Of a stretch of DNA of 58,477 nt, positions 18,522-39,401 are shown piece after piece. The notes under the pieces are model-generated. The model saw nothing but the letters and a program-made list of their open reading frames with translations, was not told the DNA's origin and searched no databases. The stretch is from Candidatus Kaiserbacteria bacterium RIFCSPHIGHO2_01_FULL_55_37 (GTDB taxonomy: Bacteria; Patescibacteriota; Minisyncoccia; Phycocordibacterales; UBA2100): contig MFKY01000048.1 in the NCBI GenBank assembly GCA_001781175.1, positions 1-58,477 on the forward strand, written 5' to 3'. Positions within the stretch are counted from its first letter, which is position 1. Each line of letters opens with the position of its first letter. Made by a program: the position numbers and the translations under genes.

Positions 18522-20459
18522 ATGGAACCACTGCCACCATCCAACGATTCTGGACACGCCGGAGGCGCAACTCCCGGACCGCGCCGCACTCAGAGCCCCG
18601 CACGCCCGCACCACGCCCGCCCGGGGAGCCGCCCGCCATCCCGCCCCGCAGGAAGGCCGGGGACACGGACAGGCCGGCCGGCCAGACATTTCGGTCGTCC
18701 CAATCATCCGCCGCGCCGCGGAAAAACCCGCGTCGAGCACCAGGCGCCCTCCCAACGTAAACAAGCGGGCGCTCCCATTCCACCCCCCTCACCCGACACC
18801 GTGCGCATTATTCCTTTGGGCGGCGTCGAAGAGATAGGACGCAACATGACGGCCGTGGAATTCGGCGACGATATTTTCATCCTCGACTGCGGATTCGCCT
18901 TCTCCGAAGGAGAAACCCCGGGCATCGATTACATCCTGCCGAACACCGGCTACCTCGAGGAGCGCCGCGACAAGATCCGCGGTCTGCTCATCGGACACGG
19001 TCACCTCGACCACATCGGCGGCATCCCCTACATCATCGACCGCATCGGCAACCCGACCATCTACACGCGCAAACTTACGGGCATGATGATAAAGAAGCGC
19101 CAGGAAGAATTCACGCAGACATCGCCCGTGAACATCCGCGAAGTAGAGAGGGACGAAGTCATCAAGCTCGGCGCCGCGACGATACGATTTTTCGGCGTCA
19201 CGCACACAGTGCCTGATTCGATGGGCATCATCATCGAGACCCCGTGGGGCGACGTGGTGTATACCGGAGACATCAAGTTGAACCACCTCGACGGCGAGCC
19301 GTCGGCCGAGGAGAAGCGCGAATTCGGTATATTCAAGAACCGCAAAGTACTCGCCCTGCTCATGGACAGCACGAACGTCTGGCAGCCGGGATTCTCTATT
19401 CCTGAATCAACTGTCTACACCACTCTCGAAAAAATAATCAAAGATTCAAAAGGCCGGCTTGTTATCGCGATGTTCGCTTCCCACTTGGAGCGGCTCATCC
19501 GCGTCGTGCATTTTGCCGAGGAGTACGGCAAAAAAATCGTCATCGACGGACGCAGTATGCGCACCAACATCGAGATAGCGCGGGAAATAGGTATCATCAA
19601 ATACAAAGATGACACCGTCGTCGCCGTCGAGAACATGAATCAATATCCGCCGGAACGGCTCATCATCCTTGCGACAGGCGCTCAGGGAGACGAGTTCGCA
19701 TCGCTCGCCCGCATCGGCAACAAGACGCACAAATACATCCGTCTTCAGCCGACCGATACCGTCGTGCTCTCTTCGTCGGTCATTCCCGGCAACGAGCGCG
19801 CAGTGCAAAAGCTCAAAGACAACCTCTCGCGTCAGGGAGCACATATCATCACCTACCACGCCTCCGATGTGCATGCATCCGGCCACGGCAACCGCGAAGA
19901 AGCGGCATGGATACACAGCCAAATAAGGCCGAAATTCTTCATCCCCGTTCACGGGTATCACTACATGTTGCGTGTGCACGCCGACCTCGCCGTCGAAATG
20001 GGTGTCAAATCGGAGAACATTTGTATCCCCGACAACAGCTCCATCATTGAGATAAAAAATGCCGAGAAGATATTGAAGCATGCGCTCAAAGCACCTGCAG
20101 AACTGCGCGTCGTTGAAGGCACGACCGTCTCGGAACTCTCCGATGTCCTGATGCGTGACAGAAAAGCGCTCGGTCAGGAAGGCTTCTGTGTCGTCGTCGC
20201 GACGGTAGACCGTCGCACGGGCAAGCTCCACAAATCCCCCGACATCATCTCGCGCGGGTTCGTCTATCTGCGCGACAACAAAGACCTCATGGACCAGACG
20301 CGTCTCATCATCCGCAAATCAGTAGAGACGTCGCTGCGCAACCCGCGAGCCGCAGACCTCGACGCCGCAAGAGAAGACCTAGCCGACGCGGTTTCCCAAT
20401 TCCTGTTACAACGTACAATGAAAAGACCTATTGTTATCCCCGTAATAGTCAGTATCTAA
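18522..20459 (+). CDS. rnj: Ribonuclease J (beta-CASP metallo-beta-lactamase) with Arg/Pro-rich N-terminal extension
   Basis: IGHGHLDHIGGIPY, a beta-CASP region and HASGHG. About 90 aa of R/P-rich leader precede the conserved VRIIPLGG start. Confidence 0.9.
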   Translation: MEPLPPSNDSGHAGGATPGPRRTQSPARPHHARPGSRPPSRPAGRPGTRTGRPARHFGRPNHPPRRGKTRVEHQAPSQRKQAGAPIPPPSPDTVRIIPLGGVEEIGRNMTAVEFGDDIFILDCGFAFSEGETPGIDYILPNTGYLEERRDKIRGLLIGHGHLDHIGGIPYIIDRIGNPTIYTRKLTGMMIKKRQEEFTQTSPVNIREVERDEVIKLGAATIRFFGVTHTVPDSMGIIIETPWGDVVYTGDIKLNHLDGEPSAEEKREFGIFKNRKVLALLMDSTNVWQPGFSIPESTVYTTLEKIIKDSKGRLVIAMFASHLERLIRVVHFAEEYGKKIVIDGRSMRTNIEIAREIGIIKYKDDTVVAVENMNQYPPERLIILATGAQGDEFASLARIGNKTHKYIRLQPTDTVVLSSSVIPGNERAVQKLKDNLSRQGAHIITYHASDVHASGHGNREEAAWIHSQIRPKFFIPVHGYHYMLRVHADLAVEMGVKSENICIPDNSSIIEIKNAEKILKHALKAPAELRVVEGTTVSELSDVLMRDRKALGQEGFCVVVATVDRRTGKLHKSPDIISRGFVYLRDNKDLMDQTRLIIRKSVETSLRNPRAADLDAAREDLADAVSQFLLQRTMKRPIVIPVIVSI

Positions 20460-20472
20460 GCGCATCGACTTG

Positions 20473-20502
20473 CCCCGTTAGAAGCGAAGCTTTCTAATGG
20501 GG
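20473..20502 (+). repeat. Short-form CCCCG...CGGGG hairpin (family A)
   Basis: CCCCGTTAGAAGC-gaa-GCTTTCTAATGGGG forms about 13 bp with one G-U pair and one bulge. It starts 13 nt after the rnj stop. Confidence 0.75.
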
Positions 20503-20543
20503 TGAGGCGCCCTATCGTGATTCCGGTGATCGTCAGCGTTTGA
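20502..20543 (+). other. Ghost (recoded) copy of the RNase J C-terminal 13 codons plus stop
   Basis: GTG AGG CGC CCT ATC GTG ATT CCG GTG ATC GTC AGC GTT TGA = VRRPIVIPVIVSV*, in frame with rnj, which ends MKRPIVIPVIVSI*. Confidence 0.8.
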
Positions 20544-31448: not shown

Positions 31449-32504
31449 ATGTTCCACTTACTCGAACGATATACCGTTGAGAGCGTCACGTGCGGACACC
31501 CTGACAAAGTGTGTGACCAGATGTCCGACGCGATTCTTGATGCGATGCTCGCACAGGACCCTTTTAGCCGCGCGGGAGTAGAGACCTTCGGCAGCCACGG
31601 CACGCTCATGATAGGCGGTGAAGTGAAAACAAAAGCGAAAATAGATTTCGAAAAGATAGCGCGCAAAGTGTATAAAGACATCGGATACACCGAGAAGCTT
31701 GAGGTGTTTGTGCGCGTCGCGCAGCAATCCCCTGACATCGCGATGGGAGTGGATACGGGAGGCGCAGGAGACCAAGGCATCATGTACGGCTACGCGACGA
31801 ACGAGACAAAAGAATATTTGCCGAAAGGCGTCGTACTTGCGCACGCGCTCGCGAGACGGCTCGAAAAGTTGCGCCGCGACGGCACGCTTAAATGGCTCAA
31901 GCCCGACGGCAAGACGCAGGTGACCATTTCAAAAGGCAAAGTTATCACTGCGCTTTGCTCCACGCAGCACGACAAAAAAGTCTCGCAGGAAGAGATACGT
32001 AAGCAGCTCATTAAGCACCTCTTCACGCCTATACTCGGCTCGCTCAAAAATATCGAGATACTCGTCAATCCAACGGGGCGGTTTGTGCAAGGAGGATTTG
32101 AAGCCGATGCGGGGCTCACGGGCCGCAAAATCCAAGTAGACACCTACGGTGGGCTTATGCCACACGGTGGCGGCTGTTTCTCGGGTAAGGAGCCGATGAA
32201 GGTGGACCGCTCGGCCGCATACATGTGCCGTTTTGTCGCGAAGAACCTCGTCGCAAACGGCTATGCCAAGAAAGCGCTGGTATCGGTCGCCTACGCTATC
32301 GGCCGCGCGGAGCCCGTCATGATAGAGGCGTTCGACGAGAAAGGTAAGAACCTAACCCACATCGTGACCAAGAATTTCGATTTCCGCCCGCAAGCAATCA
32401 TCGAACGGCTGGACCTGCGCCGCCCCATCTACAAAGAAACCGCCGCCTATGGCCACTTCGGAGTAGCGGGAAGACCATGGGAGAAGATTGTGAAGCTTAA
32501 GTAA
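31449..32504 (+). CDS. metK: S-adenosylmethionine synthetase (short form, 351 aa)
   Basis: ESVTCGHPDKVCDQMSDAILD...GGAGDQGIMYGYA...VDTYGG. Confidence 0.93.
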   Translation: MFHLLERYTVESVTCGHPDKVCDQMSDAILDAMLAQDPFSRAGVETFGSHGTLMIGGEVKTKAKIDFEKIARKVYKDIGYTEKLEVFVRVAQQSPDIAMGVDTGGAGDQGIMYGYATNETKEYLPKGVVLAHALARRLEKLRRDGTLKWLKPDGKTQVTISKGKVITALCSTQHDKKVSQEEIRKQLIKHLFTPILGSLKNIEILVNPTGRFVQGGFEADAGLTGRKIQVDTYGGLMPHGGGCFSGKEPMKVDRSAAYMCRFVAKNLVANGYAKKALVSVAYAIGRAEPVMIEAFDEKGKNLTHIVTKNFDFRPQAIIERLDLRRPIYKETAAYGHFGVAGRPWEKIVKLK

Positions 32505-32591
32505 ATATTGGCCGCCCGCCTTCGCGAGGCCGCAGCCTCGCTTCGACGAGGCGAAGGCCCGTGGGAGAAAATAATCAAACTGAAAAAGTAA
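32505..32591 (+). other. Hairpin spacer plus ghost (recoded) copy of the MetK C-terminal tail
   Basis: After the TAA comes the GC-rich hairpin GCGAGGC-cgca-GCCTCGC with outer GCCTTC/GAAGGC pairing. It is followed in frame by GGC CCG TGG GAG AAA ATA ATC AAA CTG AAA AAG TAA = GPWEKIIKLKK*. The real end is RPWEKIVKLK*. Confidence 0.75.
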
Positions 32592-32728
32592 GCGGCACGG
32601 GTGTTACACCGGACATCATCGCGTGATATGTTATCCCACTGTCGCTGACTTCGTAAGAATGCCCGGGCAATCAACATTGAATTGAATTTTGCGCACATAC
32701 CGACCCGACATAAGCGCGCCCTTACACA

Positions 32729-32760
32729 CATGCAACTATGACGGCCGTCACAGTTGCATG
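32729..32760. promoter_or_regulatory. 32-bp palindrome (candidate operator) overlapping the promoter of the PaaX-like gene
   Basis: CATGCAACT AT GACGGCCGTC AC AGTTGCATG. Its right arm contains TTGCAT (-35-like), and TATGAT follows at 32775-32780. Confidence 0.6.
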
Positions 32761-32789
32761 TGGTCATGATATTCTATGATAGATAACGT

Positions 32790-33365
32790 ATGGGGAAACT
32801 CGAAACGGCTGCCCGATTTGAAAGACGCAAGGGATACGTGCAAAAGGCCGTCTTAGCGAGCATCGGCATTGCGGGAATACTGCTTGTCGCGATGGCCGCG
32901 CCGAATACCCTGCAACTACTGGGAAAACTCGGCAAAGGCAAAAAGAGATTCGGCGAGGAAACCCGGTCAGCACTTTCGCGTCTTGCCTACAGAGGTCTCA
33001 TTGCCTTCGAAGAGCGCGATGGAAAGAAGTACGCCCGTATCACCGAGAAAGGTCGGCGAGCCCTTGAATTCGAAGCACAGAAAGCGGCTGTTCGCGCCAA
33101 GTGCGGAGGGCGATGGGATAAACGTTACCGAATGGTGATTTTTGATATTCCTGAGCGGAAACGCAGTATTCGCGCTTCTCTACGCCGAACCATGCGCGAA
33201 TCGGGTTTCTTGTGCATTCAAGGGAGCGTCTGGGTATACCCATATGATTGCGAGGATCTCATTGCACTTTTGAAAGCTGATCTTCACATCGGCAAAGATG
33301 TTTTGTATACCATCGTTGAAAAGATTGAGAACGATGCGTGGATCAAAAGACATTTCGACTTATAG
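32790..33365 (+). CDS. PaaX-like / Cas2-fold domain protein with N-terminal TM helix (putative regulator)
   Basis: TM helix AVLASIGIAGILLVAMAA, a winged-helix-like segment LAYRGLIAFEERDGKKYARITEKG, and a C-terminal YRMVIFDIPERKRSIRASLRRTMRESGFLCIQGSVWVYP. Confidence 0.55.
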   Translation: MGKLETAARFERRKGYVQKAVLASIGIAGILLVAMAAPNTLQLLGKLGKGKKRFGEETRSALSRLAYRGLIAFEERDGKKYARITEKGRRALEFEAQKAAVRAKCGGRWDKRYRMVIFDIPERKRSIRASLRRTMRESGFLCIQGSVWVYPYDCEDLIALLKADLHIGKDVLYTIVEKIENDAWIKRHFDL

Positions 33366-33382
33366 AAACAAATCATCAAATA

Positions 33383-33414
33383 CATACAAATCGGACGGCC
33401 GTCATATTTGTATG
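33383..33414. promoter_or_regulatory. Second 32-bp palindrome of the same design, upstream of the HAD phosphatase gene
   Basis: CATACAAAT CG GACGGCCGTC AT ATTTGTATG, followed by TATATAA. Confidence 0.6.
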
Positions 33415-33493
33415 TAGGTATATAAAGGGCTGTATGTGTTATGCGTCAGAGTAGAACTGTGCAACGAAAGTTGAAATCAGGTATCATGCGGGG

Positions 33494-36399: not shown

Positions 36400-37389
36400 T
36401 TAACGGAGTAGGATGTCGGCAATATCAGCCCGAAAGATGTTGACGGCAGAGTGTATCGAGGCGGCGTCGGGTGGACGCTTTGGGTACGTACGATTCGAGA
36501 GAACGACGAACGCGACCCCGTGTTCGGGGTCAACGGCGACCGACGTTCCCGTAAAGCCCGTTTTGCCGAAAGCGCCAGTGCCGAAGTGAGAGCCCATAAA
36601 CCACGGTTCAGCTTTCTGCCAGCCCCAATGTTTCCTCGCGCCGCCCATCACTGCCGGAAGCTTGCCTTGGAGTAATGCTTCGAGAAAATTGAGTGTATCG
36701 GGTGCGGTCGAGAATAATCCGGCGTGGCCGACGGCGCGATGCCGGGCAGAGAATACGCGCGCGCTTTCGTCGTGAACGACGCCGCAAACCTCTTGGCCGC
36801 CAACAACTTCAGTCGGGGGAATCCGTGAAATATCCGCGGAAAAAAACGTCGTGTCCTTCATGCCAAGTGACCCGAAGAAATATTTCCGCGCGAGAGCATC
36901 GAGCGTGTCGCCTGTCACCCGTTCGAGAACAACGCCGAGTAAGAATGCCGGAATGTTCGTATACAAATGTTTCCCGGGCGGACCATCAAATCCGCGCTCA
37001 AACACGTGCGAAAGCACCTCATCGGGCGTCTTATCTTTCAGCGTCGAGAGCTGCGGCCCGCGGACGCGATAGGTCAGCAAATTTTCGATGGTCGCGCCAT
37101 AGTCATTCTTCAGCTCCGGCAAATATTTCACTACTTTATCCGCGGGCCGCAATTTCCCCTCTCCCATCAACGTGAGCGCGAGCGATGCCGTGGGGATGGA
37201 CTTGGTTATAGAGGCGAGGTCGTAGACCGTGTCTTCGCAAACCACCGGAGAATCCAACTCATACGTAAAACGCCCGAACGGCGAAATCTCGCGTTCCCCA
37301 CCGGCACGAACAACGCCGATAACGCAGCCGGGAAATACTTTTTCCTGTATTGCACGGAGAGAGCTCTCCGCTATCGTTTCTTGTATCAT
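36400..37389 (-). CDS. Serine hydrolase, beta-lactamase/PBP4*-like family
   Basis: S-x-x-K motif in DLASITKSIP, with class C-like overall length and pattern. Confidence 0.85.
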   Translation of the reverse strand: MIQETIAESSLRAIQEKVFPGCVIGVVRAGGEREISPFGRFTYELDSPVVCEDTVYDLASITKSIPTASLALTLMGEGKLRPADKVVKYLPELKNDYGATIENLLTYRVRGPQLSTLKDKTPDEVLSHVFERGFDGPPGKHLYTNIPAFLLGVVLERVTGDTLDALARKYFFGSLGMKDTTFFSADISRIPPTEVVGGQEVCGVVHDESARVFSARHRAVGHAGLFSTAPDTLNFLEALLQGKLPAVMGGARKHWGWQKAEPWFMGSHFGTGAFGKTGFTGTSVAVDPEHGVAFVVLSNRTYPKRPPDAASIHSAVNIFRADIADILLR

Positions 37390-38225
37390 TGTGGCGTCAA
37401 ACGATAGAGTATTACTTTGAGTTTCATATTGCCGATCGTATCCACGACCATTTCTTTTTCATCGGCAATCTCGATTGCATATCCGTATTTAGCTGCTTCA
37501 CCTCGAATAATATCGTGCCGTACCATTTCGCTCGCCCCTAACAATATCTCTCCTTGCGGGTTGAGATGGTCGCGTCCCTCCCGTATGAATCTTCGCAGCG
37601 CCTCATACTGCTTATCGAGTCCCGCTCGAAGTTGCATGACTTTTTCCGGTGTTATTGGCATGTCGTGCTGCTTTAGTATTTCTTCGATATCTTGATCAGG
37701 AGCATTCCATGGAAAATTCCAAAACAGGATGTCGAACTTCTCGTCCTTGCCAACTCCTGAAAACACATTGCCTTCCCGTACGCTGAAAAAGGGCTCTTTC
37801 AAGGCATATTGTTCGGCATTGGTCTTACAGTTGTCGACAGCTAGCGGCGAGATATCAGTCGCAACTACTCGGGTCGGCTCGCCGTGCTGTGCGACGTATA
37901 TCGCAGCAATTCCCGTACCTGTGCCCATATCGAGAAACGATTTTCCACGTGACTGAGCAGCAATATATGTCGGCCACGCCAATCCGATGTTGACATGTTC
38001 AGGAGAGTACACATATTTCTTGATGATGAAGTGATCAAGCCCTGGTAGGTCGACGACAATTTGTCCGCGCTCGGCGAAACGCGGGTCATTCTCCTGTCCG
38101 TCGTACATTCTTATAACGTACTCAAGAAATTGCCTTCGATTCTCATCTATCGGCGGATACTCGTAGCCATCATCGTTCGGCTTATTTTGAGGAGGATGGA
38201 ACCTCTGTAACCCATCGAGCATCAT
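37386..38225 (-). CDS. Class I SAM-dependent methyltransferase (HemK/RsmC-like, NFPW motif)
   Basis: FLDMGTGTGIAAIY (motif I), VVATDIS, and FDILFWNFPW, an NPPY-like motif IV. Start placed at MMLDG. The upstream part of the ORF overlaps the ghost tail. Confidence 0.75.
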   Translation of the reverse strand: MMLDGLQRFHPPQNKPNDDGYEYPPIDENRRQFLEYVIRMYDGQENDPRFAERGQIVVDLPGLDHFIIKKYVYSPEHVNIGLAWPTYIAAQSRGKSFLDMGTGTGIAAIYVAQHGEPTRVVATDISPLAVDNCKTNAEQYALKEPFFSVREGNVFSGVGKDEKFDILFWNFPWNAPDQDIEEILKQHDMPITPEKVMQLRAGLDKQYEALRRFIREGRDHLNPQGEILLGASEMVRHDIIRGEAAKYGYAIEIADEKEMVVDTIGNMKLKVILYRLTPQ

Positions 38226-38227
38226 AG

Positions 38228-38324
38228 CTACGCGTCCGGGTAGGCATCCTTTATCTCTTTTGCGAGGTATGGATTCCACCCCGCAGTGAAGCAAAGCTTA
38301 CTACGGGGCAGGCATGGCACCCGT
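38228..38324 (-). other. Short-form family-B hairpin plus ghost (recoded) copy of the DHOD-like C-terminal 16 codons
   Basis: Read on the minus strand: TAA, 16 nt, CCCCGTAGTAAGC-ttt-GCTTCACTGCGGGG, then TGG AAT CCA TAC CTC GCA AAA GAG ATA AAG GAT GCC TAC CCG GAC GCG TAG = WNPYLAKEIKDAYPDA*. The ghost stop is 2 nt from the methyltransferase ATG. Confidence 0.8.
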
Positions 38325-39401
38325 TTATGCGTCTGGGTATGCATCTTTGATTTCCTTAGCCAAATAAGGATTCCACATGGCTCCGGTCGCCGTCATAACG
38401 ACATCGGCACCCGCTTCGCGGTACTCTTTGAAATCTTTTGGGGTGACCACACCGCCGACGCCGACTATCTTCCACGTGCCGCCGGTCTTCGTGCGGACCG
38501 CGGCAAGGCGGCGCGTCATGTCGAGGCCCGCCCACTTGATAGCCGTACCGCACACACCGCTGCGCATACGCATAGGACTGCCCGGCAGTGCCTGCTCCCC
38601 TTTTTCGTTCACGATGGGCGCCGATATTGTGTTGATGGCGGATATCGCATGAGCGTACCTCCCGGCGATTTTTGCGAGGTGTTCGATATCCGCGTCACTG
38701 CTGTAATAGCCGACCTTGAGAATGAGCGGGAGTTTTTTTATCTTCGCGCGTATCGCTTCGCACACACGCTCCGTCATGTGGAGGTTGTAGCAGACCAAGC
38801 CTTCGTTGCCGATGTTGGGACACGAAAGATTTGCCTCAAGGATGGGTGCACCGGTGCGAGCGGCAAGTGCCGCCGCTTGCGCGAAATCCGCGACGAACTC
38901 ATCCGCAGTCTGACCCTCCTTCACCGTGCCCATGAAACTCATCACCATTGCTTGCCCCTTGCGCGCGTACAGGGCGGCCTTCTCGGCGTCTGCGAGCCAC
39001 TCTTCTGCGGGGCGTGACGGAACTCCAAAAGAATTAGTTATCGAAAGCGGCTCCCGGTAGTCCTTGTCGGCGACAAGCGGCTTCTTCGCTTTTTCGAGAG
39101 TGAGGTCGCCGTCGATATGTACCGCGAGCACATTCGGATGCGGATGGCACGGGAATTCATTTGTGCGAACGGTCTTGTACACCGCGATGTCGAATCCTTT
39201 GTCGAAAGCGCCTTTCACGAATTTACTATCGAGCAGTGGCCCCGCCGGGATACCGAGCGGATACGCGAGTCTTTGGCCGAGAAACTCGAAACGTGGATCT
39301 CCCTCGGGCAAAACGACTCCGTCAATAAAACCATTAAAGGGGCCCTTTTCAAGGTTTTCGTAGTAGGACTTTGCGGGGTCGTAGAAAGGGGCTTGTAGCA
39401 T
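38325..39401 (-). CDS. Dihydroorotate dehydrogenase-family flavoenzyme (class 1-like)
   Basis: ANLSCPNIGNEG (active-site loop) and GVGGVVTPKDFKEYREAGADVVMTATG. Confidence 0.75.
   Translation of the reverse strand: MLQAPFYDPAKSYYENLEKGPFNGFIDGVVLPEGDPRFEFLGQRLAYPLGIPAGPLLDSKFVKGAFDKGFDIAVYKTVRTNEFPCHPHPNVLAVHIDGDLTLEKAKKPLVADKDYREPLSITNSFGVPSRPAEEWLADAEKAALYARKGQAMVMSFMGTVKEGQTADEFVADFAQAAALAARTGAPILEANLSCPNIGNEGLVCYNLHMTERVCEAIRAKIKKLPLILKVGYYSSDADIEHLAKIAGRYAHAISAINTISAPIVNEKGEQALPGSPMRMRSGVCGTAIKWAGLDMTRRLAAVRTKTGGTWKIVGVGGVVTPKDFKEYREAGADVVMTATGAMWNPYLAKEIKDAYPDA

Follow-up and report, generated by a model that had tools for sequence, protein, structure and literature searches.

A second end behind metK in a Kaiserbacteria contig: a possible scar of allele replacement between diverged strains

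How does a conserved gene come to be followed, just past its stop codon, by a second version of its own last codons, spelled with other bases and read as almost the same peptide? The metK gene in the 58,477-nt stretch of Kaiserbacteria DNA analyzed here (the whole of which we call the window) raises this question in an unusually clean form. The gene closes with CCA TGG GAG AAG ATT GTG AAG CTT AAG TAA, which encodes PWEKIVKLK and a stop, and a little further on, still in the metK frame, the DNA reads GGC CCG TGG GAG AAA ATA ATC AAA CTG AAA AAG TAA. We refer to such a displaced second end as a ghost. We argue that the metK ghost is the scar of a one-sided allele replacement between diverged strains, homologous at one end and illegitimate at the other, and we would give that reading a probability of roughly one half. 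Taken alone, the ghost is an ordinary pseudogene stub, non-functional and harmless.

That the end of metK is duplicated can be stated plainly. A repeat search returned the two tails as a direct repeat of 26 nt with 73% identity and a spacing of 84, and the MetK tail, when compared with the 200 nt downstream, reached a best ungapped BLOSUM score of 49, a value attained by none of 3000 dinucleotide shuffles (18.7±3.4, maximum 42). Eight of nine residues are kept; the eight base differences among 27 aligned bases produce one amino-acid change (V/I), the other seven being silent, and random substitutions gave so few amino-acid changes in 0 of 100,000 trials (P<1e-5). The ghost region is the same, base for base, in four independent metagenome assemblies (ERZ4903070, ERZ27254767, ERZ4903137, and JGI 3300025323). 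The preliminary description of this locus, which had presented the tail duplication as real and most third positions as changed, and had seen in it one more case of a repeated pattern, was right on these counts: the differences are non-random and synonymous, and the pattern has three instances in the window, at rnj, at metK, and at a DHO-like gene. Two of its other proposals have to be reworded or given up. The tail that it called “recoded” is better described as a different natural allele, both versions being native in relatives, and the shared block TGGGAGAA, offered as a possible recombination core, is indistinguishable from codon constraint (tryptophan has one codon, and glutamate and lysine have two each).

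The gene itself is a recognizable methionine adenosyltransferase (Table 1). Three S-AdoMet synthetase Pfam domains match it with E values of 1e-29 to 1e-53, the exact protein is present on five contigs, the closest MetK proteins and loci carry the names Kaiserbacteria or Paceibacterota, and a SAM riboswitch upstream of the gene is the sole Rfam match in the window. One might imagine that MetK is naturally longer, by about 28 codons, and that the ghost is the far end of a coding sequence interrupted by a nonsense mutation, a possibility that the preliminary description had itself raised. We reject it: all 120 of the best MetK homologues end at the usual place, in WEKI[IV]K[IL](K) and a stop, and none is longer.

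Table 1. Positions of the gene ends, hairpins, and ghosts in the window (nucleotides of the window) and, by locus, of further ghosts beside the 36-nt hairpin in metagenomes
Feature	Position or locus	Strand	Basis or content
metK (methionine adenosyltransferase, 351 aa), working gene	31449..32504	+	Pfam and exact-protein matches
Working tail of metK, PWEKIVKLK and TAA, probably imported	32475..32504	+	Least-matched part of metK
metK ghost, non-coding stub, apparently the last ~31–33 codons of another metK allele	32505..32591	+	Colinear alignments
GC-rich hairpin in the decayed 5' part of the ghost	32510..32559	+	RNAfold, z -2.6
Intact ghost end, GPWEKIIKLKK and stop	32556..32591	+	Repeat detection, score test, relatives' native tails
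rnj, working gene	18522..20459		Tail RPIVIPVIVSI and stop
rnj ghost locus	20460..20543	+	12-nt linker, 36-nt hairpin element, ghost tail after rnj stop
rnj hairpin, 31-nt stem-loop, then T at 20503	20472..20502		Hairpin z -5.6
rnj ghost tail	20502..20543		VRRPIVIPVIVSV and stop
DHO-like gene, working	38325..39401	-
DHO-like ghost locus	38228..38324	-	15-nt linker, hairpin, ghost tail after stop
DHO-like hairpin element	38309..38279		Same element as at rnj
DHO-like ghost tail	38278..38228		WNPYLAKEIKDAYPDA and stop; frame +1
Tail ghost, RNase Y-like protein	L111		Reading of C-terminal motif
Tail ghosts, Xer-like recombinases	L121, L148, L209
Tail ghost, DHO-like gene	L201
Head ghost, EF-G	L139		N-terminal peptide
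Head ghost, TsaD	L127		N-terminal peptide
Head ghosts, transketolase	L112, L167		N-terminal peptide
Head ghost, MurC	L129		N-terminal peptide
Head ghost, UvrA	L149		N-terminal peptide
Head ghost, GAPDH	L181		N-terminal peptide
Head ghost, MsrA	L100		N-terminal peptide
Head ghost, ribosomal protein L28	L152		N-terminal peptide
Head ghost, ribosomal protein S20	L107		N-terminal peptide
5' part of a tRNA	L145
In-frame hairpin copy within uvrA	L153, L180
Double array	L160

Which of the two ends, then, belonged to the gene? Here, the rest of metK is informative, for the gene is a recombination mosaic with patches from diverged strains. Over the first ~230 nt it is 100% identical to one relative (L006), and the remainder matches that relative at 69–92% per 48-nt window; when the gene is set against 54 relatives in 60-nt windows, the best-matching relative shifts along it. 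The best match among the 54 lies between 0.82 and 1.00 in every window except at the gene end, where it is 0.80 over the final 60-nt window and 0.75 over the last 48 nt. Against the native tails of relatives, the working tail shows 0.67–0.80 identity and the ghost 0.77–0.85, and one relative (L040) natively ends in PWEKVIKLKK and a stop, so the KLKK ending of the ghost occurs in nature. Judged by their sequences, both tail versions are natural alleles of a type native to relatives. Because the working tail is the least-matched part of the gene and the ghost lies nearer to native tails, the working tail looks like an imported piece, and the ghost looks like the displaced end of the resident gene. 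A donor lineage with the working tail did not come to light, nor did a near-identical strain that lacks the stub. The collections hold no near-identical genome for fine mapping of the imported blocks, the nearest being ~80% identical. The almost purely synonymous divergence of the two tails is what one would expect had each been under purifying selection in its own lineage before the event; both having once worked, their silent differences can be explained without any selection on the ghost.

What lies between the two tails was first described as a hairpin spacer, in effect a separate element. The hairpin arms are detected as an inverted repeat, and the fold is moderately unusual (-28.4 kcal/mol, with 4 of 200 shuffles folding as well in RNAfold). 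As an independent element, however, the hairpin does not survive, for a second copy turned up neither in the window nor in 2.2 Mb of related loci, and the hairpin resembles decayed metK coding sequence. The 57 nt that run from the metK stop to the TGG of the ghost are colinear with the coding sequence that precedes the tail in the metK genes of relatives, aligning with the native 3' ends of four of them (L039, L035, L021, and L041) with several gaps of 1–4 nt. With the alignment anchored at the ghost, the observed score was reached in 7 of 1000 dinucleotide shuffles, and in an unanchored local test, it was reached in 63 of 1000, which is only marginal. On this moderate support, the spacer of 51–57 nt is probably decayed metK coding sequence rather than something inserted; if it is colinear with upstream metK coding, the stub would be 87 nt long and would start right after the TAA.

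Other identities for the metK hairpin were considered and set aside. A consensus scan makes no call of an intrinsic terminator, and a T-tract is absent on the 3' side; Rfam has no family that matches at the site; the hairpin matches neither the family found at rnj and the DHO-like gene nor the palindromes linked to RAYT-like genes in relatives; and the several copies with conserved borders that mark a dispersed element of the REP or MITE type were not found for it.

The DNA beyond the gene tells its own story. In the relatives with 97% (L005), 98% (L006), and 92% (L007) MetK identity, metK has a single tail and is followed directly by glmS, by a HAD hydrolase gene, and by glmS, respectively; all three are without the ghost and without the PaaX-like gene. 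In another relative (L213), a 195-aa ORF and PaaX lie 3' of metK, and in the window, ghost and PaaX lie there. Since the downstream content varies in this way among relatives, homology ends at the metK stop codon, and the joint is a synteny break against other strains, much as had been suspected when the junction was proposed as the edge of an acquired segment. The PaaX-like cassette that had been placed immediately beside the ghost is indeed present downstream, but its conserved part starts ~50 nt past the ghost. This distance, together with the native look of the ghost, weakens the idea that ghost and PaaX-like unit were imported as one block.

A course of events that would produce this arrangement is not hard to imagine. 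Diverged Kaiserbacteria strains would exchange short patches of DNA. In the exchange that made the ghost, homologous recombination within metK would have settled the left end; the right end, falling where the DNA 3' of metK differs between strains, would have met no homology and been joined illegitimately, out of register, at a point ~100 nt upstream of its counterpart. The product would be a complete metK carrying the last codons and the stop of the incoming allele, with the last ~31–33 codons of the resident allele left immediately behind it. That stub would have been decaying ever since, small deletions in its 5' two-thirds having left a GC-rich hairpin by chance. The locus has the marks that one would look for in such a scar—imported patches, a synteny break at the joint, and a short duplication made of two alleles—and a published account (PMC3240628) has one-sided homologous plus illegitimate recombination as an established process in transformable bacteria. 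The order of the steps, the choice of the resident copy, and one-sided (homology-facilitated illegitimate) recombination as the mechanism are what we infer from these marks.

We might have stopped there were it not for the neighbors. When all long ORFs of the window were scanned for ghosts, exactly three stood out—rnj, metK, and the DHO-like gene—with the rest within noise; the same scan of 80 related genomes, 1.2 Mb in all, gave one case, which is the DHO-like insertion in a relative (L024). At rnj, the ghost has a period of 84, and it is missing in 18 of the 18 relatives with rnj. At the DHO-like gene, tail and ghost are identical in 16 of 16 residues, with 12 silent differences, and the period is 97; because this ghost lies out of frame, the frame shared by the two tails of metK, which the preliminary description had pointed out, is incidental. 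The window shares the DHO-like insertion with two distant hosts (L024 and L201), and closer ones (L028, with 94% amino-acid identity, L010, and L025) lack it. Its ghost in the window is 0.97 identical to the native tail of a relative, the working tails of the three hosts cluster together, and the block of tail, linker, and hairpin is 80–84% identical between the window and L024, compared with only ~65–70% for the gene bodies. Both the rnj and the DHO-like cases sit at synteny breaks, and in both, a conserved hairpin ends exactly where the joint lies, at its foot. The two insertions have in common a motif, GCCCCGTnnnAAGCnnnGCTT...GGGG, that in the window and its relatives occurs at ghost loci only.

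Trimmed to its sharp borders, this hairpin is a unit of 36 nt, (G)CCT-GCCCCGTAgGAAGC-TTT-GCTTTCcTTCGGGG-T, and its stem arms, by inspection of the copies among the matches listed, covary at their variable positions. A scan of metagenomes found it at a minimum of 118 loci. Among the matches listed, 56 of 89 copies have the working gene end on their CCT side, and at least ~25 copies have a duplicated gene head or tail, different chiefly at synonymous positions, abutting the GGGGT foot; a stricter score threshold gives 17 distinct gene-end pairs, again among the matches listed. The genes concerned are collected in Table 1, where the names at head ghosts come from reading N-terminal peptides, not from a family search. 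At these head ghosts, the working gene has a new ribosome-binding site and start codon. Across the copy pairs of the family, 75 of 176 codons are identical, compared with 71.5±6.2 by chance, so synonymous sites are saturated; a few pairs look young (identical codons 11/11 at L194, 8/9 at L181, and 7/11 at L171). The notion that codon identity is actively avoided is unsupported, for without the three young pairs, the deficit is only ~1.9 sd.

The 36-nt hairpin is common in groundwater Patescibacteria, and its coupling to recoded gene ends appears to be an undescribed pattern; its sequence was not found in the searchable literature, where a keyword search gave nothing relevant. Neither the 36-nt hairpin nor the metK hairpin turned up in the viral contigs of IMG/VR, and a phage origin was rejected for that reason. 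In three relatives (L007, L018, and L022), RAYT-like Y1 transposase genes with their own, different palindromes lie beside maf–metK; the window contains no match to this gene, and no copy of it was found with the 36-nt hairpin at its flanks.

These sister cases are awkward for the account of metK as a recombination scar. With three scars in 58 kb and a single one in the 1.2 Mb scanned in relatives, the density in the window is far above the rate expected of random accidents; joints placed precisely at the hairpin foot, at rnj and the DHO-like gene, point to a directed process, for which illegitimate joining alone does not account; and saturated synonymous sites in the hairpin family imply very distant donors, with which homologous anchoring would be inefficient. 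All three considerations favor a different explanation, in which a self-compensating mobile cassette made of replacement tail, stop, linker, and hairpin was inserted in the last codons of the gene. Such a cassette would bring its own copy of the codons that it displaces and would spread by using the conserved tail as homology arms on both sides, the metK hairpin differing from the common type.

We regard the cassette as a possible, if doubtful, explanation of metK. In architecture, the metK locus is as the other two, with a stop, 12–15 nt, a hairpin, and a ghost abutting its 3' foot. The DHO-like block of tail, linker, and hairpin, more alike than the genes that it ends and missing in closer relatives, is what a traveling unit should look like, and the clustering of the working tails speaks for the same thing. 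The copies of the 36-nt hairpin lie beside many housekeeping genes and a tRNA, at least ~25 of them with ghosts, and the working tail of metK is an orphan sequence. But the metK hairpin is not the 36-nt element and is without a second copy in the 2.2 Mb, the metK spacer resembles decayed metK coding, the neighborhood in the window has no linked recombinase or transposase (the RAYT-like gene of relatives being unmatched there), and no known mechanism would build units of this sort for so wide a range of genes. At its most general, the idea would unite the three ghosts of the window and the ~25 of groundwater metagenomes (among the matches listed) as products of one undescribed process in Patescibacteria: a small hairpin-ended unit would invade the first or last 5–30 codons of a conserved gene or tRNA and substitute the end of a foreign lineage, complete with a stop in the one case or with a ribosome-binding site and start in the other; the displaced native end would persist as a ghost against the GGGGT foot, and the metK hairpin would be a degenerate member or one of another type. 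We offer this generalization tentatively.

Could metK have made its ghost without any outside help? Slippage or unequal exchange might have duplicated its last ~100 nt in situ, in tandem, and recombination patches from other strains might then have overwritten one copy, making the two look like different alleles. Such a ghost would begin directly behind the stop and run colinear with the end of the gene, as this one appears to; patchy recombination is evident in metK, and the hairpin family does contain young, near-identical pairs. We nevertheless think it unlikely. Two steps are needed where one suffices, a neutral copy with 8 differences in 27 nt should not hold eight of nine residues unless it were overwritten, and the fact that it is the working tail, rather than the ghost, that is the orphan would go unexplained.

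Very improbable, in our judgment, is programmed recoding, in which readthrough of the stop or bypass of the hairpin by the ribosome would yield a second MetK isoform. A stable hairpin after the stop and an open in-frame stretch of 28 codons do invite the thought, and as in the bypass of phage T4 gene 60 or in readthrough, the frame resumes ~50 nt later. The extension, however, would only repeat the same nine residues, the ghost is absent in 120 of 120 orthologues as well as in the closest relatives, the sister case in the DHO-like gene is out of frame, and Rfam is silent at the site; neither the conservation in orthologues nor the constancy of frame across instances that marks recoding is found here. 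Scarcely credible is the remaining pair of ideas, that the ghost serves a diversity-generating retroelement as its template or variable repeat or that two strains were fused in assembly: of the eight differences, five do have A in the downstream copy and another base in the gene, but three are without A, the differences are synonymous (diversification by such an element would show the opposite, A-specific and non-synonymous changes, with a reverse transcriptase nearby), the repeat is ~30 nt long, no reverse transcriptase domain was found among the neighbors, and the four independent assemblies agree in every base.

If the metK ghost is a scar of allele replacement, it means that Kaiserbacteria strains differing by 15–30% in their DNA exchange short allele patches and sometimes do so imprecisely, and the ghost would be a record, at the level of sequence, of recombination in uncultivated bacteria with reduced genomes. 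It carries a warning for annotation as well, since such stubs mimic readthrough extensions. The hairpin-linked ghosts at rnj and the DHO-like gene are the interesting part, and they merit a study of their own: if a dedicated mechanism made them, it would be a new way for mobile sequence to enter essential genes without killing them, and a self-compensating insertion, if true, would be in effect a natural version of the “recoded rescue” design.

How do these ghosts compare with systems already known? The 36-nt hairpin has much in common with the REP elements mobilized through RAYT (Y1/HUH) proteins, with MITEs, and with the palindromic elements of Rickettsia (RPEs): it is a GC-rich imperfect palindrome with sharp borders and compensatory changes in its stem, and its many dispersed copies stand at the ends of genes and now and then within one, in frame, as in uvrA. 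Unlike REP elements and their RAYT genes, it was not found flanking a RAYT gene, and the metK hairpin is no member of its family. We know of no report of REP, MITE, or RPE elements with a recoded duplicate of the first or last codons of a neighboring gene.

Another parallel is with integrative elements that restore the 3' end of the gene they enter, examples being e14 and phage 21 in the icd gene of Escherichia coli and islands in tRNA and tmRNA genes. There, as at metK, the working tail is imported and synonymously different, and the displaced native end stays behind as a non-functional direct repeat; the two diverged direct copies of the 3' end that such an event leaves are present at metK. 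In e14 and icd, however, kilobases and an integrase separate the copies, whereas those of metK are adjacent, 0 nt apart or 46–57 nt apart counting the hairpin, and no integrase lies between or beside them among the neighbors (Maf, CofD, PaaX-like, and HAD).

The parallel on which our preferred reading draws is homology-facilitated illegitimate recombination, worked out originally in Acinetobacter, Pseudomonas stutzeri, and Streptococcus pneumoniae and, to our knowledge, never shown for Patescibacteria. The scars described here differ from it in that they recur, three in a single window, and in that two of the joints coincide exactly with the foot of a conserved hairpin. The products of that process and metK are alike in other features: one end resolved in the homologous gene, the other joined without homology at the place where homology stops, and small duplications or deletions at the illegitimate joint.

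Like the ghost that follows metK, by which we mean a non-coding duplicate of a gene's last (or first) codons that differs from them mostly synonymously, the ghost after the DHO-like gene, too, sits at a break in gene content. In four relatives (L010, L025, L032 and L026), the DHO-like stop codon is overlapped by the ATG of a beta-lactamase-like gene, whereas here (37386-38325, minus strand), the beta-lactamase-like gene is separated from the DHO-like gene by a methyltransferase gene that starts 2 nt past the ghost's stop. This ghost lies in the +1 frame, that is, out of frame, and its case and that of rnj have in common the conserved hairpin GCCCCGTnnnAAGCnnnGCTTnnnnnnGGGG.

Features in and around the ghost-bearing regions
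Feature	Position	Strand	Remark
Stop, hairpin and recoded ghost tail after rnj	20460-20543	+	
SAM riboswitch RF00162	31261-31358	+	Rfam, 45.3 bits, slightly over gathering score
Small hairpin directly past metK ghost's stop codon	32593-32611	-	scan: terminator-like
Two related 34-nt palindromes, core GACGGCCGTC	32728-32761 and 33382-33415		bracket PaaX-like ORF
PaaX-like / Cas2-like-domain gene	ORF 32790-33365		
Stop, hairpin and recoded ghost tail after DHO-like gene	38228-38324	-	
RAYT-like Y1 (HUH) transposase gene	L007 1-580; L018 8603-9184; L022 8641-9213		

What happened on the other side of metK? The riboswitch, the sole Rfam match in the window, lies directly 5' of the gene. Over its opening ~230 nt (31449-31680), metK is 100% identical to that of its close relative L006, as are the 116 nt upstream, which is as far as the L006 sequence reaches; the remainder of the gene differs by 8-31% per 48-nt window, a sharp recombination breakpoint within metK. 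At the 3' end, the small hairpin runs on the minus strand into the complement of the Lys-rich ghost, which is rich in T; the hairpin's terminator-like call is probably a coincidence.

The PaaX-like gene has 2247 homologues, many of the best-scoring ones on contigs just ~1-2 kb long, as would be expected of multi-copy or strain-variable DNA, and its 5' palindrome is kept ahead of the homologue in locus L213. Elsewhere, a PaaX-like gene lies downstream of a ghost (L201) or ahead of a hairpin (L123).

The 36-nt hairpin element of the rnj and DHO-like cases, (G)CCTGCCCCGTAGGAAGCTTTGCTTTCCTTCGGGGT, occurs at no fewer than 118 groundwater metagenome loci (L095-L212; e.g., L111, L139, L127, L145, L153 and L160); it had no match in viral contigs, and its sequence was absent from the literature searched. 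Most of the matches listed have the working gene end on their CCT side; the duplicated head or tail of this gene, where detectable (~25 copies), is on the GGGGT side. Other settings include a tRNA 5' end, an in-frame position within uvrA and a double array.

Just 5' of maf-metK in the relatives L007, L018 and L022 stands a RAYT-like gene, with no counterpart in the window, that carries palindromes CCGAGGACGGTCCTCGG on both flanks. Another RAYT-like Y1 (HUH) transposase gene, in hairpin locus L158, is flanked by ACCCCATAGG...CCTATGGGGT, and the outer stem of this flanking palindrome is similar to the 36-nt hairpin.
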